Positions 1 to 9,415 are shown, counted from the first letter of the stretch. The stretch is DNA of 64,000 nt from Candidatus Latescibacterota bacterium (GCA_965204725.1 OZ242005.1:1760001-1824000); one strand, 5' to 3'. A program made the numbers and translations. Notes: generated by a model from the letters alone, not told the origin.

Positions 1-1
1 A

Positions 2-640
2 GGCTCGGTTCAGCTCGACTCGCCCATGCTCTACGTGATGGGCTTTATCGGCCTGTTCACCATCGGCGGGCTGACGGGCCTGTTTCTTTCCACCTTGGGC
101 ACGGATGTCCATCTCCACGACACCTATTTCGTGGTCGCCCACTTTCACTACGTCATGGTGGGCGGCATGGTCATGGCGTTTCTGTGCGGCCTGCATTTTT
201 GGTGGCCTAAAATGACCGGGCGCATGTACTCGGAAGGGGCGGCCAAGCTCGGCGTCATGTTCGTCTTCGCCGGGTTCAACTTGACCTTCTTTCCCCAATT
301 TGTCTTGGGGTACTTGGGCATGCCGCGGCGCTATCACGCCTATCCCGAGGAGTGGCAAGCCCTCAACATCATGTCAACAGCCGGGGCCACCGTCCTCGGG
401 CTGGGCTTTTCCCTGACCATCGTCTATCTCCTCTGGTCCTTGTTCAAGGGCCAGAAGGCCACTGCCAATCCGTTCCAAGCCAAGGGCCTCGAATGGGATA
501 TTCCCTCGCCGCCCATCGCCCACAACTTTGAAGCCATTCCGATCGTTACTTGGGAAGCCTATCCCTACGGCGAGGAGGAACCCGCAGCACCGAGCAGCGA
601 GCCCGTACCTGAACGCGCTAAGGAGGACGAAGTTGTCTGA
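2..640 (+). CDS. ctaD: Cytochrome c oxidase subunit I, C-terminal part (5'-truncated by window edge)
   Basis: [13 protein letters not shown] heme-ligand motif, GMPRRY motif; frame open from base 2. Confidence 0.96.
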
Positions 641-1301
641 GCACGCACACAGCGCCCACCACCTACATCAGTTCGAGACCGCGCAGCAGCAATACGAAGC
701 CGCCAGCCTCGGCATGTGGGCGTTCATCATCCAAGAAATCCTGTTCTTCGGGGGGCTGTTCGGCGCGTACACCGTGTATCGCAACACCTATATCGAAGCC
801 TTTACCGCCGGCTCGCACCACCTCGACATCTTCTGGGGCACCTTCAACACCATCGTGCTAATCGCCAGCAGCCTGACCATGGCATTGGCTGTCCGCGCCG
901 CGCAGACCGACGCCGGTCGCAACGCGATTACCGGGTGGCTCGTCGCCACGATCCTTCTCGGCTGCGCCTTCTTGGGCGTCAAGTACATCGAGTACAGCCA
1001 CAAGTGGCTCGATAACCTCATCCCAGGCAGCATGTTCCAGTGGAACGACCCCGCCTTCCCCGAGGTTTCGCTCGGCAACGCCAAAATTTTCTTCTCGTTC
1101 TACTTCGTGATGACCGGGATGCACGCCTTGCACATGGTCATTGGCGTTGGCATCATGCTGTGGATGATCGTCAAAGTCCAGCGCAACGAGATTTCGGCTC
1201 AGTACTTTACGCCGATTGAAATCAGCGGCCTCTACTGGCACTTCGTGGATATCGTGTGGATTTTCCTCTTCCCCCTGCTCTATCTGATCGGACGCCACTA
1301 A
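633..1301 (+). CDS. ctaE: Cytochrome c oxidase subunit III
   Basis: [44 protein letters not shown]; TTG start after AGGAGG, overlapping the subunit I stop. Confidence 0.93.
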
Positions 1302-1630
1302 TGTCTGAACATCACGTAGTTCCGCTCAAGATCTACTTTCTGATCTTCTTCGCCCTAATGATTGGCACCGTCCTCACGGTCGCCGCGGCCTTCGTCGATA
1401 TGGGCTTTTTGAATACGCCGGTCGCCCTGATCATCGCCTTAGTAAAGGCATCGCTGGTCATTTTGTTCTTCATGCACGTAAAATACAGCCCCAAGCTGGT
1501 CGGGCTGTTTGCCGTGGCCGGCTTCTTCTGGCTGTGCATCCTGCTGGCCTTGACCATGCAGGATTACTACACGCGCGGCTGGGGCGAGGAAGCACCGGTG
1601 GAGTTTTTGCAGGAAGGGTCGTTCTTCTAA
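1301..1630 (+). CDS. ctaF: Cytochrome c oxidase subunit IV (caa3 type)
   Basis: KASLVILFFMHVKY motif, three TM helices, TAATG coupling to subunit III. Confidence 0.88.
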   Translation: MSEHHVVPLKIYFLIFFALMIGTVLTVAAAFVDMGFLNTPVALIIALVKASLVILFFMHVKYSPKLVGLFAVAGFFWLCILLALTMQDYYTRGWGEEAPVEFLQEGSFF

Positions 1631-1721
1631 GTTTTAAGTCGAGCCTTACCAAGGCACGGGCGAGAGATACTCGTCGCCAAGCCGTGGAGATTCGGCAGCG
1701 CATCCCTGCCGCTTCTGCATA

Positions 1722-1756
1722 AAAAAGCCCAAGCCGCTTTACACGGCTTGGGCTTT
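1722..1756. terminator. Bidirectional intrinsic terminator
   Basis: aaagcccaagccg-ctttaca-cggcttgggcttt hairpin between convergent gene blocks. Confidence 0.8.
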
Positions 1757-1777
1757 CGTCCTATACGCTTCCCCATT

Positions 1778-1960
1778 CTACTCTGTCGCTCGCGCCGCCT
1801 TGAGAAAGGCTACCACCTCCTTGTAGCACTCCTTCTTTTCGCCGCCCTCAATGTGGGAACCCCGGCCAGCCCATGTCAAGGCCATCCCTTCGGAGTTATT
1901 TTGTTTTGGGCGTTGACCTCGGCACCGAGATCCACCAAAAACTTTACTATCTCTAATTGA
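1778..1960 (-). pseudogene. Frameshifted remnant of an ankyrin gene 3' end
   Basis: Reads QLEIVKFLVDLGAEVNAQNK then in another frame NNSEGMALTWAG..YKEVVAFLKAA; DNA similar to 2465-2545. Confidence 0.7.
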
Positions 1961-1970
1961 AGTGGAGAGA

Positions 1971-2189
1971 CTACAAACGCTCCCAAGTTGTCCGACTAAC
2001 ACCGGCCTGCGCTAAAATTTTATTCAAAAGCCCACGGCCAATGTCGCCACGATGTGGGTTAGGCAGGACAAGACGCGTCTTATCTCGGACCATATACTGA
2101 TGATTCCCCCCAGAATAGGGGCCTTCAAATCCCAATCTCCTCAAATAGCGAATAAGATCGCGGTGACTCAGCGGTCCAAATTGGGGCAT
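1971..2189 (-). CDS. hicA: HicA family mRNA interferase toxin
   Basis: LRRLGFEGPYSGGNHQYM..LVLPNPHRGDIGRGLLNKILAQAG; ATG overlaps the upstream TGA. Confidence 0.9.
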   Translation of the reverse strand: MPQFGPLSHRDLIRYLRRLGFEGPYSGGNHQYMVRDKTRLVLPNPHRGDIGRGLLNKILAQAGVSRTTWERL

Positions 2190-3172
2190 CACACCGATTC
2201 CGGTACGCCCTCCAAGCGCACCCCATCCACTTCAGGAAGCAGATGGTTCATTTTCAATCCGAGGGTGATCCAGCCCTCAAGCACGGATTGCAATTCTTCG
2301 CGGCACTGTTCCAAGGTCTCCGCATTTGCATACACGCCTTGAAATCCGACAATTTCTCCATAAAACGTTTGATCGTCGAGTACCTCGAATGTCGTGCGTC
2401 TCATCGCCAACTGGATATATCGGGCCATTCTGAGAAAATCTGCCATCTCCTGATAGTCGCCCGCTTCGGCCCATGTCAAGGCCGTCTCACCGGAGTTATT
2501 TCGGTCGTTGACCTTCGCACCACGGTCCACCAAAAACTTCACCACCGCTAAACGATCGCTAACGGCGGCCTTCATCAAGGCCGTCCAGCCGCGGTTATCC
2601 TTGGCGTGGATATCGCCCCCCTTGGAAATCAAAAACTCCACGACCGCTAAATGGCCACCCCAAGCGGCCCGCATCAAGGCCGTCTCGCCATCTTTATTAC
2701 CGATGTTAATATCGGCCCCCTTACAAACCAAAAAGCGCACTACCGCTAAACGGTCCTCCATAGCAGCCTTCATCAAGGCCGTCCAGCCGACGTTGTTTTG
2801 GGCATTGACATCAACATCAGCCCCGCTAGCCACCAAAAACTTCACTACCGCTAAATGGCCGCCTTGAGCAGCCCACATCAAGGCCGTCCAACCATTCGCA
2901 TCGCGGATGTGAATATCCGCCCCCTCGGCCACTAAAAAGCGCACCATCGCCAAGTAGCCATCTTGGGCCGCCCACATCAAGCTGGTCGTCTGTCGCGCCC
3001 CTTGCCCAATATAGGACTTGAGCAATGCCTGCACCGACATGTCTCGGTTGGCGGCGACCTGCTTGAGAGAATGGAGTACATCCTTGGGTATCTCTATGGA
3101 TACCGTTTCCGTCGCACGAGGACGGAACGCAAGCGCAAATTCTTCTTTCTGTTTGGTTTCAGGCGTCTTCAT
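2189..3172 (-). CDS. Fusion protein: CopG/RHH-like antitoxin + about 6 ankyrin repeats + HicB antitoxin
   Basis: N-term RPRATETVSIEIPKDVLHSLKQVAANRDMSVQALLKSYIGQG; repeated TALMxAAxxGxLAVVKFLVxxGAD; C-term YIQLAMRRTTFEVLDDQTFYGEIVGFQGVYANAETLEQCREELQSVLEGW. Confidence 0.85.
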   Translation of the reverse strand: MKTPETKQKEEFALAFRPRATETVSIEIPKDVLHSLKQVAANRDMSVQALLKSYIGQGARQTTSLMWAAQDGYLAMVRFLVAEGADIHIRDANGWTALMWAAQGGHLAVVKFLVASGADVDVNAQNNVGWTALMKAAMEDRLAVVRFLVCKGADINIGNKDGETALMRAAWGGHLAVVEFLISKGGDIHAKDNRGWTALMKAAVSDRLAVVKFLVDRGAKVNDRNNSGETALTWAEAGDYQEMADFLRMARYIQLAMRRTTFEVLDDQTFYGEIVGFQGVYANAETLEQCREELQSVLEGWITLGLKMNHLLPEVDGVRLEGVPESV

Positions 3173-3452
3173 ATAACTTCCTTTCAGGAGGCGTTGCGCG
3201 ACGCGCAGATATGATGCGCGTCCATTGGTCTCGCTCTACGTAAACGACCAGCAAAATGCGTTGCTGAAACGAGTACCCAAGAATGAAATTCCGTTGTTCG
3301 GCACCCGTGGATGCGTCACCTATTTGATAAAAACGATCGAAGAAGACTTCGGCGGCTTCTTCAAAATGGACGTGATGCTTCTGCACATTGCTTTGGGCTT
3401 TGTTCTCATCCCACTGAAACCTGATGTCTTGAAGTTGGTATTCGATGTCCAC
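3159..3452 (-). CDS. brnT: BrnT family ribonuclease toxin
   Basis: FQWDENKAQSNVQKHHVHFEEAAEVFFD ... RIISARRAT. Confidence 0.92.
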   Translation of the reverse strand: MDIEYQLQDIRFQWDENKAQSNVQKHHVHFEEAAEVFFDRFYQIGDASTGAEQRNFILGYSFQQRILLVVYVERDQWTRIISARRATPPERKLYEDA

Positions 3453-3475
3453 AAGACGAAGGATCGCCTCCCCTA

Positions 3476-3718
3476 CTACTCTCCGCCCTCGTAAAGCCCT
3501 TTGCGGCTAACCGCGTACTCGGACAATGGGGGGCAATCGGGACCAACACAATCCATAAAATCGTCTGCCAACTGATCGGCTAGGGCCTCAAATTTATCAT
3601 CCGATAGCGGCTCTACCTTAACCTGCTCCCATGGGACGAATTCGATCAGCACGGATTGCTTCTCACCATTAGAATCCACGACAAACTGGGATTTTTGAAT
3701 CCGGTCAGCAACGCCCAT
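3476..3718 (-). CDS. Small antitoxin-like protein, apparently chimeric
   Basis: QFVVDSNGEKQSVLI N-terminus and LSEYAVSRKGLYE C-terminus each resemble small antitoxin-type proteins; located in the TA array. Confidence 0.5.
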   Translation of the reverse strand: MGVADRIQKSQFVVDSNGEKQSVLIEFVPWEQVKVEPLSDDKFEALADQLADDFMDCVGPDCPPLSEYAVSRKGLYEGGE

Positions 3719-3749
3719 TTCGTTCTTCTTTTTTGGTCCCAAACGGCCC

Positions 3750-3848
3750 TCACGCAATGTCGCGCACCAGCACCAAGATCGCCGCCTGCGGCACGACGAT
3801 AAACTTCTCGTCGTCGAACTTGATTTCTACCGCGTCTTTGCACAGGAA
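3750..3848 (-). repeat. 99-bp copy of the 3' end of the groES-like gene (5792-5890)
   Basis: 93/99 identical, includes stop codon; encodes FLCKDAVEIKFDDEKFIVVPQAAILVLVRDIA*. Confidence 0.95.
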
Positions 3849-3855
3849 TTTTGAC

Positions 3856-4332
3856 CTACCCTTTATCTGTTCCATCTTCTTGTTTCAACTCTAATTCATC
3901 GAGAACGAGCACGTCCACATCCGCTACACGTTTGAGTGCTTTATCGTTGGTTAAGAAAACCTGACAGTTCGCTGTCTTAGCAACGGCAACTTGTAATGCG
4001 TCAGGTGTGCGTAACCCATGTTGTGCCCGGAGAATAGCCGCTTGCTCGGCTACTTTTGCGTCAACAGGCAACGTATAGAAGTTGGCACTGTGAAGCAACA
4101 AATCGCGATATTCTTTTTGCAAATGAATCTCTCCTTGTTCCAGAGGCTGAGTTAAAACTTCCGTCAAGGTAATGACTGAAGTAAATCCTGTAATGATTCC
4201 TTGATGAATTCTGTGAAAAATCTCGGTAACTAATCTATGGTACGCGGGATTCATTTCGATTAGATAGATGATGGGCGCCGTATCGAATCCTACCCTTGTC
4301 ACATCCGCCAATGCGTCATCCAGTGCGATCAT
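3856..4332 (-). CDS. vapC: PIN-domain (VapC-like) toxin
   Basis: VGFDTAPIIY, SVITLTEVL, LRTPDALQVAVA, FLTNDKAL acidic PIN motifs. Confidence 0.9.
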   Translation of the reverse strand: MIALDDALADVTRVGFDTAPIIYLIEMNPAYHRLVTEIFHRIHQGIITGFTSVITLTEVLTQPLEQGEIHLQKEYRDLLLHSANFYTLPVDAKVAEQAAILRAQHGLRTPDALQVAVAKTANCQVFLTNDKALKRVADVDVLVLDELELKQEDGTDKG

Positions 4333-5464
4333 GGTTGGTATCCCATTCTTCACGAAGACGATCAACGTACGTTTGAGCATCTACCCCTTGCCAAATCTCT
4401 CTACCTAATCCACGCAACTCCAGAATACTCCGTTTTTTAGGCTCCTGTTGGGCGATGAGAGCCAATTTTAACCGGCGCAGATGCTCTGGCGAAGGATCCC
4501 ACCAAATAGGATTTGCCAACGATCCTTCTTGGCCTCGTAGCCTATCGTTGCACCGCTTCGTTTCCTTTGAATCTGCACGCGATTGCACATCTCCAACCTT
4601 TGCTAGGCGATGCAGGGGGACCGGCGTGTCATGGGTCAATTCTTCATAGAGACGGTTGCGTAACCATGCGACGTTCCGAGGTATGAGGTTATGGCCAAAC
4701 AGTTGGTTGGCAACATTCCCAATGCATCCATAGGTAGCCAGATGGCCAAATGGAATTTGCGTAATGATCAGGGCTACATGCCATCGCCACTCTCCCTTAG
4801 AGTTTCGCAACTGTGCTTCAATACCTTGCAAATCTTCTTCAATACCCTGCAAATCTTCTTTCGTAGTTTTTTTTATTGTATCGCAGTACTGGGCAAGCCT
4901 TTCGGCTACTTCATTCCCGAATTTTTCCAGCCGGGAGTCTAGGGATTCTCGCGTCTGTAGCAGCGACTCCTCCAACGCCTTGATACGTCGCTGTAGATGA
5001 GGATGAGGAACCATGGCGTATAGTTGCTTAGCCACTTCTAGGTCCAGCTCAATCCGACCTATCGAGTTGTAGAGGTAAGGGAGCTTGTTCCTGTACTCTT
5101 CCACCTTCCCCCCCACCAACTCATTGATCGCATCCCAGTCGAAGATGATAGGCGGCCGCTCCTCAGCAGGGATTAGCTCAAACCCCCTCCTCCACTCCTC
5201 GGCCTTCTTCAGCAGAGCAGGCAGACGTTCCGGCCAGTCGTGGAGCATGTTCGGCGAGAAGTCGGCTCCGGTAGGCCAAGTTGGGACCCCATCGTCCAGA
5301 TAAACTTGGTTGAACAGTTTGAGGTCCTTTAGGGGACTATATATCCGGCCTGATAAGATAGGACGAAGATCGGCCTCTTGGCATGTACCGTCCTCAAAGG
5401 AGGCCCGTAGCTTGTAGGGACCTATCACTTCCAGACGGATCACTTTATGAAGTTTATAATCCAC
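4316..5464 (-). CDS. Fusion protein: DUF2442 antitoxin-like + coiled coil + MGMT/ATL-like DNA-binding domain + VapB-like tail
   Basis: YKLRASFEDG..LFNQVYLDDGVPTWPTGADFSP; QIPFGHLATYGCIG..PRNVA..VPLHRL; KRSILELRGLGREIWQGVDAQTYVDRLREEWD. Confidence 0.75.
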   Translation of the reverse strand: MDYKLHKVIRLEVIGPYKLRASFEDGTCQEADLRPILSGRIYSPLKDLKLFNQVYLDDGVPTWPTGADFSPNMLHDWPERLPALLKKAEEWRRGFELIPAEERPPIIFDWDAINELVGGKVEEYRNKLPYLYNSIGRIELDLEVAKQLYAMVPHPHLQRRIKALEESLLQTRESLDSRLEKFGNEVAERLAQYCDTIKKTTKEDLQGIEEDLQGIEAQLRNSKGEWRWHVALIITQIPFGHLATYGCIGNVANQLFGHNLIPRNVAWLRNRLYEELTHDTPVPLHRLAKVGDVQSRADSKETKRCNDRLRGQEGSLANPIWWDPSPEHLRRLKLALIAQQEPKKRSILELRGLGREIWQGVDAQTYVDRLREEWDTNHDRTG

Positions 5465-5469
5465 TTGTT

Positions 5470-5730
5470 TTATCTCTCTGGCGGCTCAATAGGATCGGGG
5501 ACGACGCCTTGCTGCAACTGTTCCCAAGCAGCTTCCAGATCTTCTACATGATCTTCAGCCCAGTTCATCACTTGTCGATGCTTATTCCTTGGCAGTGAAC
5601 CCCCTATTACCTCTATATTGCCTGAATCAACGGCATAAACAGCCTCATCCCCCGAATAACTCGCATGAAAGTGCGGTCGATGGTGAGGGCTACCTACTTC
5701 CGAGAACATTCGGTCAGATAGTGATTCCAT
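5470..5730 (-). CDS. DUF4160 family protein (putative toxin partnered with DUF2442), N-terminus atypical
   Basis: HHRPHFHASY..A..GSLPRNKHRQVMNWAEDHVEDLEAAWE..PIEP. Confidence 0.8.
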   Translation of the reverse strand: MESLSDRMFSEVGSPHHRPHFHASYSGDEAVYAVDSGNIEVIGGSLPRNKHRQVMNWAEDHVEDLEAAWEQLQQGVVPDPIEPPER

Positions 5731-5791
5731 AAAACTCCGCAAGTTTCGGCATAAAACTCCGTTAAACAGAGTCGATTCAAGGCTTGCTTCG

Positions 5792-6154
5792 TCAAGCAAT
5801 ATCGCGCACCAGCACCAAGATTGCCGCCTGCGGCACGACGATAAACTTCTCGTCGTCGAACTTGATTTCCACCGCGTCCTTGCGCAGGAAAATGGCGTGA
5901 TCGCCCTTTTTGGCTTGGAGGCCGATGTAGCGCATCTGCTCGCTCCCCTCCTCCCAAGGTACGCCGTCGTCATCGGCCTTCGGCGGCAAGGGAACGCCCG
6001 GCCCCACCTCTTCGACGCGCCCGCTTTGCACGTTCTCCTTTTCCAAAGCGGTCGGCGGCAAATAAAGCCCCACGGCCGTGCGCTCTTCCATGTCGTCAAC
6101 CCGGATGAGTACGCGGTCGCCGACTACGTATAGTTCTTTGTCGCCCCGGATCAT
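5792..6154 (-). CDS. GroES/Cpn10-family co-chaperonin-like protein (orphan, no groEL)
   Basis: VGDRVLI..GLYLP..GRVEEVGPG..KKGD..EKFIVVPQAAIL. Confidence 0.85.
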   Translation of the reverse strand: MIRGDKELYVVGDRVLIRVDDMEERTAVGLYLPPTALEKENVQSGRVEEVGPGVPLPPKADDDGVPWEEGSEQMRYIGLQAKKGDHAIFLRKDAVEIKFDDEKFIVVPQAAILVLVRDIA

Positions 6155-6155
6155 T

Positions 6156-6413
6156 TCACCTCGTTAGTAGCGGCAAAAGCTGATTGACTAGCACGGCAAC
6201 CACGACCGCGGCGGCGATCTTCCAGCCGAGCTTGTTCAGGTCATCGCGCACTTTGTTTAGCTCACCGCGTACTTTGTTTAGCTCGCTGTGCATTTCTCTG
6301 CGCAGGTCTCCTAACTGATCTTCTACGCGGCCCAACCGTTCGTTCATCTGCCGCATTTCGCCGCGCAATTCGCCTAAATGCTCGGCGCGTTCTTCTGTCT
6401 CGCTCAAGGCCAT
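6156..6413 (-). CDS. Small coiled-coil protein with C-terminal TM anchor
   Basis: Heptad repeats ELNKVRG/ELNKVRD (21-bp tandem), hydrophobic C-terminus, AGGAG RBS. Confidence 0.75.
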   Translation of the reverse strand: MALSETEERAEHLGELRGEMRQMNERLGRVEDQLGDLRREMHSELNKVRGELNKVRDDLNKLGWKIAAAVVVAVLVNQLLPLLTR

Positions 6414-6449
6414 GCTCCACGCTCCTTTCTTGGGTAATCCGTTGAGTTC

Positions 6450-7664
6450 CTAGGACGCCAGTCGCAAACACTCGCCGTAGCGCTCAAAGCGCTCCCCTTC
6501 CTCCTCGGCTGGATCGACGTACTTGAGCCAAAGGGCGCTGTCCTTCTTGGCACCGCTGAGGTCGCGGCGGCTGCCCAAGTGGCTGGGATCCGCGCCGTTC
6601 CACACCACTTGGCCGTCCTGCATGTAGATGAACTCCCCTCGATAGCGGTCGATTAGCGGCTGCTGTTGGTCTTGGTAGATCAGCCCCTGTTCGCAGGTGG
6701 TGCGCCGCCAGTTGGCCACGGTGGCGTCTGAGTCCGTAGATACCGAGTCAAATTCGGCCAGCGGCGCCTCGACCTCGCTCGCAAAGTCAATCTCGGCCAA
6801 ATCCACCGTGCCAAAGCCGCGCTCGGCCGCGATCAGCAGGTGATTGCGGTCGCGGCGGAAAGGCGGGGTCGGCCAATCGGATTGGGGATCGTGGCCCATC
6901 AAGGTCATGCCGCAGGCGTCGGTCGCCACCGGGTGATCGCCGGCCATCAAGGCATTGCAAATCCGGCCCTCGCCGCCCCATTCGCGGCCCCATTGGCCGG
7001 TGAGGGCCTCGACGATGTTGAGGCAGGGCTTGGTAATCAGGCCCAAGTCCGGCAGGACGTAGGAAAGCCGGATTAGGTGGTGATAGTACGAGCGCGTCCG
7101 CCCTTCCGGCGGGATCATCGGCGGCAGGCCAAAGAGGTTTTTCAGGGTCAAGGTAATGCCCATGAAGGCGTGGTTCTTCATCTTGGCGATGGATACCATC
7201 TCATCGGCCTCGGCAAAGACCGAGTTGAGCACGTATTGGTCGAACATGCAGCCGCCGTCCGGCACGGCAAAGGTAGTAAAGGGCGGCAAATTGCCATCGA
7301 CAAAGCGGACGCCAAACTCGTCCAACAAGTAGCGGTAGTTAAAATCGTCTGGGGTCACGTGGCCGTTGCCGTAGGGATAGGTATCTACGGCCACGAGCTC
7401 GGCCGTCGTCCGCTCCCGCAACAGGCGCAACACCGCCCGAGCCATGGCGTCATCGACCAATTCTCGGCGGCGACCGGCGAAATACTCAACGCGCTCCGGC
7501 GGCTTAATCATGTTGAATTTCAGGGCGATCCGCCGCGCTTTGGCCAACTTCTCCCACGAGCGGTCCAGCGGTTCGGTCGTGCGCTTGAGCACTTGGTATA
7601 TCTCCTCGTCGCTGGCTTGATGATCGCAATGCGACGCTCGGACCTTGTACTGTTTGTCGTTCAT
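6450..7664 (-). CDS. DUF362 family (putative Fe-S) protein
   Basis: LKFN, KMKNHAFMGITLTLKNLFG, HPVATDAC motifs. Confidence 0.8.
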   Translation of the reverse strand: MNDKQYKVRASHCDHQASDEEIYQVLKRTTEPLDRSWEKLAKARRIALKFNMIKPPERVEYFAGRRRELVDDAMARAVLRLLRERTTAELVAVDTYPYGNGHVTPDDFNYRYLLDEFGVRFVDGNLPPFTTFAVPDGGCMFDQYVLNSVFAEADEMVSIAKMKNHAFMGITLTLKNLFGLPPMIPPEGRTRSYYHHLIRLSYVLPDLGLITKPCLNIVEALTGQWGREWGGEGRICNALMAGDHPVATDACGMTLMGHDPQSDWPTPPFRRDRNHLLIAAERGFGTVDLAEIDFASEVEAPLAEFDSVSTDSDATVANWRRTTCEQGLIYQDQQQPLIDRYRGEFIYMQDGQVVWNGADPSHLGSRRDLSGAKKDSALWLKYVDPAEEEGERFERYGECLRLAS

Positions 7665-7786
7665 GGGGCTCTCCTTTTGGGCCTTTTCACTGTGTGGGCT
7701 AGGTGATATATTGAAAAAACATATCGTGCGACTCTTCTATGTCAAGCCGGCCGTTTTTCCCTCTCATCCACAGCAAAGGACATCCC

Positions 7787-8614
7787 ATGAGACCGCTGGT
7801 CCTGTTCCACGGAGGCTGTAATGACGGCTTCTGTGCTGCGTGGATCTACCGCCGCTACGTCAACCCGCACACCGAGTTTAAGGCCGTTCAATACAACACC
7901 GATCCGCCGGCTACGGCGGGCCGCGACGTCGTCATCCTCGACTTCAGCTACGACCGCACCCAGCTCATGGCCATGCACAATCGCGCCCGCTCGCTCTTGG
8001 TCTTAGACCATCACGAGACCGCCGCCGAGGCCCTAGCGGGGCTCGACTATTGCGTGTTTGCCGAGGGCAAGTCTGGGGCGCGCATGACTTGGGAGTACTT
8101 TTTCGATCCCCGCTCGCAGGTCCGCATCGACGACGTCCCTTGGCTGGTGTCCTATACCGAAGACCGCGACCTATGGCGGTGGGCCTTGCCCGATTCCAAG
8201 GCCATCAACGCGGCCCTCGCCTCGTACCCGCGCAACTTTGCCGTGTGGGACGAAATCGCCGAGCGCGGCCCGCAAGCCCTCGTCGTGGAAGGCCAAGCCA
8301 TTCTCCGCTTCCAACACCGGCTCATCCGGCCGCGCGTCCGCCATCACGGTTGGACCACCATTAGCGGGTTCCGCGTCCCCATTACCAACGCCACGTTTCT
8401 GACCTCTGAAATCGGCAATGCCCTCGCCGAAGGGCATCCTTTTTCCGCCGTGTTCTTCGTCCGCCCCGACAGCAGGGTCGTGTACAACCTGCGCTCCAAG
8501 GGGGATGCGGCCGCCGATGTGGGCCGCATCGCGCGCACGTACGGCGGGGGCGGGCACAAGCACGCGGCCGCTTTTACCCTAGAGACCATGTTGCCGATGG
8601 AAGCGGGGACCTAA
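7787..8614 (+). CDS. DHH/DHHA1 phosphoesterase
   Basis: HGGCNDG, ILDFS, LDHH, DRDLW, GGGHKHAAAF. Confidence 0.88.
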   Translation: MRPLVLFHGGCNDGFCAAWIYRRYVNPHTEFKAVQYNTDPPATAGRDVVILDFSYDRTQLMAMHNRARSLLVLDHHETAAEALAGLDYCVFAEGKSGARMTWEYFFDPRSQVRIDDVPWLVSYTEDRDLWRWALPDSKAINAALASYPRNFAVWDEIAERGPQALVVEGQAILRFQHRLIRPRVRHHGWTTISGFRVPITNATFLTSEIGNALAEGHPFSAVFFVRPDSRVVYNLRSKGDAAADVGRIARTYGGGGHKHAAAFTLETMLPMEAGT

Positions 8615-9415
8615 ATGACCCCCGAACAGCGCTATCTATTCGACATCAACGGCTATTTGCACCTTCCCAACGTGCTCAGCGACCGCGAACTAGCGGCCGG
8701 ACGAGCCGCCATAGATCGCTATATAGCCACGCCCGACGACGAGCTGCCCGAGGGGTTTTCCCGCTCCGACGACGGCAAGTCCTACGCCAACGGCTTTGCT
8801 TTTGACAAGGCGCTCGAATCCTTGCTCTTCCACCCCACCCTGTGGCCCATCGTCAAAGAGTTCACGCACGATCGGCCCGCGTTCTCCCGCGGCACCTTGT
8901 TGGTAGATAGTCACCGGCACGAGCCGCTGCGCCTACACTGTGCGCGCGAGGACTTTGGCTGGCCCAGCACGCGCTACGACACCCGCGAGGGCCGCATCTT
9001 CTGCGACGACTTCGTCATTTTCCCCTATTTTGACGATGTCTTCCCGGGCGACGGCGGCTTGCTGGTGGTCCCCGGCTCGCACAAGGCGGCGTTTGCGCGA
9101 CCGCCGAGCCTGTTCAACCGCGGAGTCACCGCCGAGCTAAAGGACTTGCCGGTTGGAGTCGTCAATGTGACGCCGCGAGCCGGAGATGCGGTGGTCATGA
9201 CGGAAATGCTGGCCCACGGGACCTTGCAATGGCAGCCCACAGATCGCCGGCGTCGCACCTTGGTATTGCGCTACCGGCCCCAATTCAAGGGCCAAGCCGT
9301 GGTGCCGGAAGCCCTCTACGACCGCTTGTCGCCGCAAACGCTAGAGCTGATGGCCCCGGCTCACTACACCCATGTCAAGGAGATCGTCAAGGAGGACGTG
9401 GTGCGGCTCACCTAA
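8615..9415 (+). CDS. Phytanoyl-CoA dioxygenase (PhyH) family protein
   Basis: YLFDINGYL, GGLLVVPGSHK, AGDAVVMTEMLAHGT. Confidence 0.85.
   Translation: MTPEQRYLFDINGYLHLPNVLSDRELAAGRAAIDRYIATPDDELPEGFSRSDDGKSYANGFAFDKALESLLFHPTLWPIVKEFTHDRPAFSRGTLLVDSHRHEPLRLHCAREDFGWPSTRYDTREGRIFCDDFVIFPYFDDVFPGDGGLLVVPGSHKAAFARPPSLFNRGVTAELKDLPVGVVNVTPRAGDAVVMTEMLAHGTLQWQPTDRRRRTLVLRYRPQFKGQAVVPEALYDRLSPQTLELMAPAHYTHVKEIVKEDVVRLT

Follow-up and report, generated by a model that had tools for sequence, protein, structure and literature searches.

Double-headed antitoxins in two toxin-antitoxin modules of a hypervariable groES-cox interval in a sponge-associated Latescibacterota bacterium

This study asked how a single protein comes to carry antitoxin-like domains of two different families, each facing a toxin gene of the matching family, and how such a protein comes to be present twice in adjacent modules. 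The locus lies at positions 1971 to 5730 of a 64,000-nt stretch of DNA (GCA_965204725.1, OZ242005.1:1760001-1824000; hereafter the window, from the first letter of which all positions are counted) belonging to Candidatus Latescibacterota bacterium, a sponge-associated organism whose genome, G000, is a two-contig metagenome assembly with an estimated contamination of 9.97%. Every gene of both modules is on the minus strand, as are the other features given below in the form start..end. Labels beginning with G denote genomes, L the loci of relatives, P protein clusters, and X sequencing runs. In each module, a toxin gene is followed by one fused reading frame and then by a second toxin gene, and this layout, toxin A - [antitoxin A / middle domain / antitoxin B] - toxin B, which was first noticed in a first-pass annotation, was borne out for both modules by Pfam, NCBIfam and profile searches and by gene order. 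The explanation we favor, at a probability of roughly 0.6, is that these are two composite type II toxin-antitoxin (TA) operons, products of recent recombination within a hypervariable TA island that separates groES from the cox genes, and not a purpose-built sensor of two toxins. In-frame recombination products of a dense TA array had been allowed as an alternative in the first-pass annotation; it is this alternative that fits best, with the products still intact in several strains.

According to this explanation, an older toxin-first pair would have been joined in frame, in each operon, to an antitoxin-first pair, HicB-HicA in module 1 and VapB-like-VapC in module 2, and the older antitoxin would already have had an extra C-terminal domain (BrnA-ankyrin in the one, DUF2442-coiled coil-alkyltransferase-like in the other). 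A toxin-first pair upstream of an antitoxin-first pair puts the two antitoxin genes next to each other, which would account for the shared layout, and only joins that keep the downstream antitoxin translated would survive while its toxin is active. The layout would follow from gene order and the survival of in-frame joins, not from selection for a two-toxin switch. Its occurrence in both modules had been taken as arguing against accident, an argument that loses its force if the layout follows gene order; both joins lie, besides, in one hypervariable island beside duplicated remnants.

The two modules and their parts

Module 1 opens with brnT (3159..3452), a 97-aa toxin gene with a Pfam match to BrnT_toxin (PF04365, E = 5.5e-25, 87.9 bits against a cut-off of 34.5), the family profile of which also matched PDB 7vd7 (2.3e-14) and the Brucella BrnT 3u97 (7.2e-4). 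It overlaps by 14 nt the first fused frame (fusion 1, 2189..3172, 327 aa), made up of a BrnA-like ribbon-helix-helix (RHH) head, ankyrin repeats and a HicB head, and this in turn overlaps by 4 nt the hicA toxin gene (1971..2192, 73 aa; HicA_toxin PF07927, 5e-13, 49.4 bits against a cut-off of 27). The hicA product is 77-79% identical to the HicA proteins encoded behind stand-alone HicB in L005 and L007. The N-terminal head of fusion 1 (residues 1-62, 2987..3172) matched CopG_antitoxin PF12441 below the cut-off (8.5e-5, 23.7 bits against 28), over residues 19-55 and model positions 40-76 of 79, which is the RHH half only, and the NCBIfam BrnA model NF047399 was also below its cut-off (0.0027, 17.8 bits against 60). 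It is for this reason called only BrnA-like, an RHH head that occupies the place of BrnA. When compared alone with PDB, its best match, a CopG-family RHH protein, had a non-significant E of 1.2.

The ankyrin repeats (residues 63-248, 2429..2986) are tandem 33-residue units with the ANK fold, which matched Pfam Ank families at 1e-32 to 1e-50 (Ank_2, 1.6e-50) and were modeled by AlphaFold2 (AF2) with per-residue confidence (pLDDT) of 80-98. The HicB head (residues 249-327 and the stop codon, 2189..2428) matched UPF0150/HicB PF21748 at 5.9e-26 (residues 251-313, 90.6 bits against a cut-off of 27.3) and is 79% identical to a stand-alone 80-aa HicB, whose presumed own start methionine it keeps; the HicB ATG is retained inside fusion 1 and was considered as a possible independent start, the nearest AGGAG being about 20 nt upstream. 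In the AF2 model (mean pLDDT 84.7, pTM 0.76), the HicB head consists of a beta region at 260-284 and a helix at 287-307 (pLDDT about 90), and a continuous helix at 241-258 (pLDDT >90) runs from the ankyrin cap into HicB. A Foldseek search with this model returned ankyrin proteins only (E = 1e-13, target TM-scores up to 0.97 to designed ankyrin proteins), and nothing on either antitoxin head.

Module 2 begins with a DUF4160 (DhiT-like) toxin gene (5470..5752; PF13711, 9.3e-16, 58.2 bits against a cut-off of 23), for which the NCBIfam DhiT model was below its cut-off (1.9e-11, 44.4 bits against 100). Relative to G019, X3 and X4 the gene has four extra bases at about 5714-5717, leading to a stop after codon 12, so that the start at 5730 given in the first-pass annotation can be retained only as a possible restart of a broken frame. 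The insertion probably reflects true allelic variation, not faulty assembly, since an X10 piece is identical to the window at this point. After a gap of 5 nt follows the second fused frame (fusion 2, 4316..5464, 382 aa), composed of a DUF2442 (DhiA-like) head, a coiled coil, an alkyltransferase-like (ATL) domain and a VapB-like tail. It overlaps by 17 nt a vapC gene (3856..4332; PIN PF01850, 1.8e-17, 64.5 bits against a cut-off of 23.6), if that gene starts at its likely ATG at 4332; the frame is open from 4380. The PIN product is 75-82% identical to those encoded behind stand-alone VapB-like ORFs in L048 and L051. The genes of both modules thus overlap or abut, as had been reported.

The DUF2442 head (residues 1-95, 5180..5464) matched PF10387 over residues 8-74 (3.7e-5, 24.3 bits against a cut-off of 23.9), as did all 13 of 13 family members, and the NCBIfam DhiA model gave a score below its cut-off (2.9e-4, 21.3 bits against 200), which places the head in the same superfamily and not with the equivalog. 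DUF4160 genes are located upstream of DUF2442-headed genes in G019, G021, G012, G028 and G009. DUF2442 itself is very common in the phylum, being found in 117 of 168 genomes with up to 15 matches each, and a frame of about 249 aa with a C-terminal extension is recurrent. The next part, a helical, coiled-coil-like linker (residues about 96-223, 4796..5179), gave weak apolipoprotein-like matches and appears as long helices in a low-confidence model.

The ATL-like domain (residues about 224-325, 4490..4795) is of the MGMT DNA-binding type and is without the acceptor cysteine. Its match to PF01035 was below the cut-off (E = 0.027, 14.8 bits against 27), and 12 of 13 family members matched at E up to 0.1, the best at 1.5e-5. 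The fusion 2 family profile, built without the ankyrin-bearing P0019, matched Schizosaccharomyces pombe Atl1 (3gva) at E = 0.0049, with PLHR aligned to the PWHR of Atl1, a motif that reads PCHR in MGMT. Protein-atlas feature matches for this part were all to PF01035 clusters (0.86-0.87) and were taken as a lead only. Inspection of domain boundaries by HMM and structure prediction, as had been proposed, succeeded well for fusion 1; the AF2 model of fusion 2, made from a 16-row alignment, had a mean pLDDT of 45.0 and was unusable for fold searching. An alignment that included stand-alone VapB-like ORFs seemed to misplace their N-termini in the coil region and was not used for folding. A conserved ORF of about 80 aa follows ATL-ending genes in L033 (G012) and L052 (G019) and is absent from the window.

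The 57-aa tail (residues 326-382 and the stop codon, 4316..4489) can be aligned with stand-alone antitoxin ORFs beginning near residue 13 of the latter, and is 77-83% identical to such ORFs, of 72-76 aa, in relatives. Neither the tail nor its stand-alone relatives gave a Pfam family (0 of 4 scanned), and the name VapB-like derives from gene context: among seven stand-alone relatives fetched, three (L045, L048 and L051) had a full-length PIN gene directly downstream, one (L046) had a fragment, and three had none. Antitoxins of this VapB-like type, built from an N-terminal helix and a conserved tail some 35 residues long, make up a large family without a Pfam model. Matches to the tail at E up to 0.001 numbered 1208 cluster representatives; among the best 150 of these, 146 were 42-133 aa long and four were 166-186 aa, and Pfam scans of ten showed it joined to an ATL domain (P0146), to TPR at the same junction position (P0165), to HTH_17 (P0284) and to a second copy of itself (P0164). 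The tail is a widespread, portable piece.

Older pairs, junctions and the groES-cox hot spot

The distribution of fused and separate forms was examined in 61 genomes (the organism's own, and those of its genus, family and class). A match spanning residues 1-327 of fusion 1, or 1-382 of fusion 2, was found in G000 only, and beyond this genome the double-headed forms are represented by five metagenome protein clusters, 87-94% identical to those of the window. For fusion 1, the only full-length relatives among the best 120 of 3488 matches were P0001 (94%), P0002 (87%) and P0003 (226 aa, with fewer repeats). Fusion 2 gave 16 matches, two of them full length (P0121 and P0122, 88%) and 13 of 324-336 aa that stop just before the tail; these 13 DUF2442-coil-ATL clusters (57-61% identity) end two residues past the point where the tail starts in the window. 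BrnA-ankyrin (BrnA-Ank) proteins without HicB occur in G027, G006, G026 and G023, and end in the same C-terminal cap as that encoded by a gene remnant at 1778-1960 of the window and as P0004 and P0006. A full-length brnT is directly upstream of BrnA-Ank in G006, G026 and G023, with G027 keeping only a brnT fragment, and a DUF4160 gene is upstream of DUF2442-coil-ATL in G021 and G012. As judged from these comparisons, the conserved units are the two-gene modules BrnT + BrnA-Ank and DUF4160 + DUF2442-coil-ATL.

The antitoxin-first partners also occur separately, relatives having pairs of stand-alone 80-aa HicB and HicA (66-79% identity) and, likewise, pairs of VapB-like and PIN proteins, in agreement with the earlier statement that these families normally form separate two-gene pairs. 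In none of the 131 class genomes searched did any other full UPF0150 match stand in an open frame longer than 169 aa. Longer proteins holding this HicB made up six of 122 candidates, namely three triple fusions, two Ank-HicB proteins and one HicB-HicA, and in JGI metagenomes fusion 1 matched 16 loci, the triple fusion being present at none of them. Within G000, only these two of 78,164 six-frame open frames contained two antitoxin-type domains (using HMMs built here). The HMMs for HicB and for the tail matched only the fusions in that genome, and PF21748 had a single match. As the HicB head and the tail are the only copies found, HicA and VapC, if active, depend on the fused proteins.

At the nucleotide level, homology of fusion 1 to stand-alone hicB starts at the hicB start codon, and the frame is made up of an ankyrin ORF that has lost its final few codons and of a complete HicB. 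In fusion 2, homology to ATL genes ends at about 4484-4493 and homology to vapB starts at about 4495, so that an ATL frame lacking two codons is joined, at about 4493-4495, to a vapB lacking its first 13-14 codons. The junctions read as illegitimate in-frame joins. The Ank-HicB junction of fusion 1 is also present, in stand-alone form, in P0136 and P0137 (162-165 aa) and in G007, and so predates the triple fusion. The latter is probably the outcome of recombination within ankyrin repeats, with a BrnA-Ank gene and an Ank-HicB gene as the two partners. Both inserted blocks are trailed by a 3' leftover of the gene that was entered, 99 nt of groES (94% identity) and about 180 nt of an ankyrin gene (about 75%), from which we infer insertions in which homology anchored one end and the other end was joined illegitimately. 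By the same comparisons, the middle domains are part of the upstream antitoxins, BrnA-Ank and DUF2442-coil-ATL, which are the older ones, and predate the second head. They are not inserts between two antitoxins.

Read 5' to 3' on the minus strand, the locus has the order groES-like gene, DUF4160 gene, fusion 2, vapC, 99-nt copy of the groES 3' end, orf93, brnT, fusion 1, hicA, ankyrin remnant, and a hairpin with T-run, followed by convergent cox genes. The groES-like gene (5792..6154; Cpn10, 7.1e-13), 93-100% identical and in the same place in relatives, forms the upstream border. Its duplicated 3' end (3750..3848), found by repeat search to be 94% identical to 5792-5890, comprises the last 32 codons and the stop, and the resulting direct repeat brackets the entire DUF4160-to-vapC block. 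The 93-aa orf93 (3476..3757) gave no Pfam match and is an internally deleted, RelB/Phd-like orphan antitoxin belonging to neither module; its homologue in G023 has 109 aa, directly follows groES, and is RelB-like at 1.5e-5 (below cut-off). No toxin partner was seen adjoining either the window copy or that of G023.

Downstream of hicA, the remnant (1778..1960) is the frameshifted 3' end of an ankyrin gene, without a start codon, encoding in translation the last 1.5 repeats and the C-terminal cap. Its DNA is 74-79% identical to 2467-2551, and it aligns to the 3' ends of BrnA-Ank genes and the DNA beyond them in L001 and L002, while its cap matches the C-termini of P0004 and P0006. The frame is shifted by one extra A within an A-run, and X9 omits five bases at 1899. 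The hairpin and T-run (1724..1757), read directly from the DNA, likely represent the terminator of the ancestral BrnA-Ank gene and again align to DNA downstream of BrnA-Ank in L001 and L002; a consensus scan did not list this hairpin. That scan found one promoter-like site (3.5 expected) and six terminator-like sites (5.4 expected), and was uninformative on operon structure.

The interval between groES and coxIV is syntenic across the genus, and its content differs from species to species. It holds BrnT + BrnA-Ank in G026 and G006; the orf93 homologue followed by BrnT + BrnA-Ank in G023; DUF4160 + DUF2442-coil-Ank in G019; and fragments of orf93 and of the VapB-like tail, an Ank-fragment-HicB ORF and then HicA in G007. 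G027 has a truncated DUF2442-coil, IS-like ORFs (a reading by eye, made without a family search), a 581-aa ankyrin protein, VapC and BrnT fragments, and an intact BrnA-Ank. In the corresponding locus, L001, positions 2750-5255 run from the DUF2442-coil ORF, cut at 205 aa, through transposase-fragment-like ORFs to the 581-aa protein, the ankyrin repeats of which are C-terminal. The fragments of BrnT and VapC in G027 correspond to residues 30-93 and 131-174, and truncated forms are also found in G007. In relatives, truncated toxins stand beside intact antitoxins, which is the expected look of TA decay, with toxins lost first. Rearrangement is also visible between strains, in that run X9 has eight joints inside the stretch, seven skipping a part and one going back; one skip takes out almost all of the DUF4160 gene, and in two others hicBA is missing and the ankyrin remnant directly adjoins the ankyrin repeats. 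The groES-cox interval is a recombination hot spot filled with TA modules. The description of the two modules as unrelated does not hold up, as they share this one site and, in G019 and P0019, an ankyrin domain of the same kind is attached to a DUF2442-coil head.

Synonymous divergence (dS) of TA parts between species was below that of the neighboring groES (against G007, 0.22 for HicB and 0.47 for groES). Such lower values, seen for the HicB and DUF2442 heads in comparisons with G007, G019 and G027, suggest that TA cassettes are exchanged between species at this site. A site-specific integrative element, considered as a source of the duplicated gene ends, was set aside because the repeats are gene ends of 94% and about 75% identity and not att-like sites; the ORF list for 1-9000 contained no integrase-sized ORF, no family search having been made.

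Are the parts in use, and what else could explain them

If the favored explanation is right, each three-gene unit would be one operon in which overlaps couple translation, and the N-terminal head of the fused protein would bind the upstream toxin and the C-terminal head the downstream one, through the same contacts as separate antitoxins. Repression could come from operator binding by the RHH head in module 1 and by the ATL-type winged-helix domain in module 2, and the coiled coil and ankyrin repeats may serve oligomerization or partner binding. The fused frame would persist through addiction, since breaking the frame would release HicA or VapC: no other copies of the HicB and VapB heads were found in the genome.

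Several measures bear on whether the parts still function. Pairwise dN/dS against relatives was 0.15-0.53 for the TA heads and toxins and 0.04-0.055 for groES, values that mix the time before and after fusion; on this measure, the TA parts are under constraint. Compared with P0001-P0003, the BrnA head is identical at 57-60 of 62 residues and HicB at 70-78 of 79, and compared with P0121 and P0122, DUF2442 is identical at 90-94 of 95 and the tail at 48 of 57, so that in both fusions the antitoxin heads rank among the best-conserved parts. A predicted complex of two copies of the BrnA-like head with BrnT scored 0.66, the best of three controls scoring 0.00; of solved complexes, 58 of 80 came up to this mark, as did 2 of 110 mismatched pairs, counts that are rough (own alignments, two copies), and a similar complex may already have been solved. 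Contacts agreed by at least 83% between runs, partner pLDDT was at least 87, and the residues used in the predicted interface, 10-19, are invariant or nearly so in nine BrnA-Ank sequences. This model supports binding of the BrnA-like head to BrnT. The fused proteins probably still neutralize their flanking toxins. The earlier proposal that one protein neutralizes two toxins therefore stands in part, with both heads facing cognate toxins and a favorable predicted complex for one of them, and is weakened by the damage to upstream toxins in some strains.

The stretch or parts of it are present in 20 listed runs from nine studies; four of 21 listed runs were compared, one each from four further studies. 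Chimeric joins or indel errors of a long-read assembly were a concern given the two-contig metagenome assembly and its estimated contamination, along with a repeat-rich ankyrin region and a 99-nt duplicate that could mislead an assembler. Run X3, labeled as a sponge metagenome and from another study, has contigs covering 1700-3810 (64 differences, 3%) and 3798-5852 (25 differences, 1.2%), with the sole break at the groES repeat, a place where assembly from short reads is expected to end. X10 pieces are identical to the window, including across the four-base DUF4160 insertion, both junctions are shared by five protein clusters from other assemblies (P0001-P0003 for fusion 1, P0121-P0122 for fusion 2), and G007 and P0137 share the Ank-HicB junction. 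The fused ORFs are not assembly chimeras, both being spanned by contigs of another study, contrary to what had been named as a way in which the layout might be undone, and an artefact is barely credible as an account of the locus.

A graveyard of TA systems, with toxins inactive or departing and fused ORFs left as neutral leftovers, is suggested by the frameshifted DUF4160 gene, by the internally deleted orf93, by the groES and ankyrin-gene remnants and by the truncated forms in G027 and G007. In X4 and X9, brnT has a net 33-nt deletion at 3288-3323 and a 1-nt insertion at 3431, near codon 7, which may represent toxin decay in those strains. Set against this, HicA, BrnT and PIN match full Pfam models above their cut-offs, dN/dS is 0.15-0.53 and not about 1, the antitoxin heads are the most conserved parts of both fusions, and the X3 strain is without a frame-breaking indel in either module, its only indels in 1700-5852 being a 3-nt insertion in the ankyrin part and the DUF4160 gene without the four extra bases. 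We regard a purely decaying locus as unlikely.

A third possibility is that the fusion was selected as a sensor, one protein tethering two RNase toxins while its middle domain senses a signal (a phage protein, alkylated DNA or a host factor have been proposed) or serves as a protease target, and so frees both. This would suit two heads that face cognate toxin genes overlapping or abutting them, the predicted BrnA-head/BrnT complex that passed its controls, and the rigid helix joining the ankyrin cap to HicB, as well as fused frames retained in several strains and studies and ankyrin domains on three antitoxin families in the genus. It is quite unlikely when these points are set beside the rarity of the double-headed forms (each in one of 61 genomes, the HicB case in no other of the 131 class genomes), middle domains that are older than the second head, junctions and flanking remnants that resemble recombination accidents, and an upstream DUF4160 toxin gene that is broken in G000. 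PADLOC gave only generic ankyrin-repeat matches on the locus, the ATL domain is more simply seen as the DNA-binding domain of an antitoxin, and nothing was found in support of a central trigger domain. A broader version is that antitoxins of several families were deliberately coupled to a shared ankyrin or ATL 'receiver', with the double-headed forms as hubs freeing two RNases at once, which we consider very doubtful. In this version, the receiver could respond to phage or host protein binding, to damaged DNA or to targeted proteolysis. If so, the two TA systems would be tied together by a coincidence switch of natural origin.

Recombination in a TA island remains the explanation we prefer, and a number of observations weigh against it. 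Closely related ankyrin domains are found on three antitoxin families in the genus (BrnA, DUF2442 and HicB), which hints that the ankyrin-antitoxin combination is itself favored. The fused frames span 6-13% protein divergence and are represented by 22 member sequences in three clusters for fusion 1 and 34 in two for fusion 2. Indels within the fusions keep the frame (3 nt inserted at 2721-2722, 3 nt omitted at 4490-4492), as does a two-residue difference near the ATL-tail junction between the window and P0121 and P0122, and such frame-keeping could also reflect positive maintenance of the fusion. The mixed time span of the dN/dS values belongs here as well, and the damage to upstream toxins (DUF4160 here, brnT in X4 and X9) means that use of both heads does not hold in every strain.

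Relation to known systems

The scope of these findings is narrow, since the fused forms have been found in a single species-level lineage of an uncultured bacterium. If both heads work, the fusions are natural constructs for testing how far physical coupling of two TA systems is tolerated, whether antitoxin turnover is set by the whole protein or by each head, and how new antitoxin architectures arise. The locus records a process, in that a single syntenic site holds, across related species, separate pairs, two-domain antitoxins, fused forms and decayed ones, and it would show that gene order and addiction can fix a fusion without new function.

In toxin families, gene orders and overlaps, the two modules resemble canonical BrnT/BrnA, HicB/HicA, VapB/VapC and DhiT/DhiA systems, and their heads are homologous to stand-alone antitoxins of relatives. 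They differ in that two antitoxin families are found in one polypeptide, turning two pairs into one three-gene unit, and in that the upstream antitoxins carry an ankyrin domain or a coil and ATL domain. The dhiTA pair (DUF4160/DUF2442) is described, in the excerpted text of its report, as toxin-first and autoregulated (PMC8198452), and small hicBA loci without a DNA-binding domain appear as 'Class 2' in the excerpted text of a survey of hicBA loci (bioRxiv 10.1101/2023.12.08.570793). Closest in outline are Classes 7 and 8 of the same excerpt, in which proteins of 216-356 aa end in a HicB fold, carry additional N-terminal domains and are followed immediately by hicA; as described there, the extra part is a second DUF1902-type domain in Class 7 and a lysyl-tRNA-synthetase-like domain plus an N-terminal domain of no known function in Class 8, neither being another antitoxin with its own upstream toxin (bioRxiv 10.1101/2023.12.08.570793).

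TA parts also share one chain in CapRel SJ46, EzeT and the fused HicAB of Classes 11-13, as presented in the excerpted accounts (bioRxiv 10.1101/2023.12.08.570793; PMC13728456), and P0138, a HicB-HicA fusion, is a relative of this toxin-antitoxin kind. In CapRel SJ46 the antitoxin part is described as doubling as a sensor, the model behind the trigger idea (excerpted text of PMC13728456). By these same partial accounts, CapRel, EzeT and HicAB fuse a toxin to its own antitoxin, whereas here antitoxin is fused to antitoxin and the toxins are separate. SR6 of Bacillus subtilis offers another parallel, a single antitoxin located between two toxin genes (yonT and yoyJ) and acting on both; as characterized in the excerpt, it is a type I antisense RNA, not a protein, and not a fusion of two antitoxin families (PMC5848175).

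A full-text phrase and keyword search, supplements not covered, found no published protein in which antitoxins of two families are fused and encoded between the two cognate toxin genes. Modular, 'mix and match' antitoxins combine a DNA-binding domain with a short toxin-binding tail. The VapB-like tail behaves in just this way, as a portable toxin-binding piece placed behind TPR, HTH_17 or ATL domains or in tandem with itself; what sets the present locus apart from such antitoxins is that the recipient of the tail was already the complete antitoxin of another pair.

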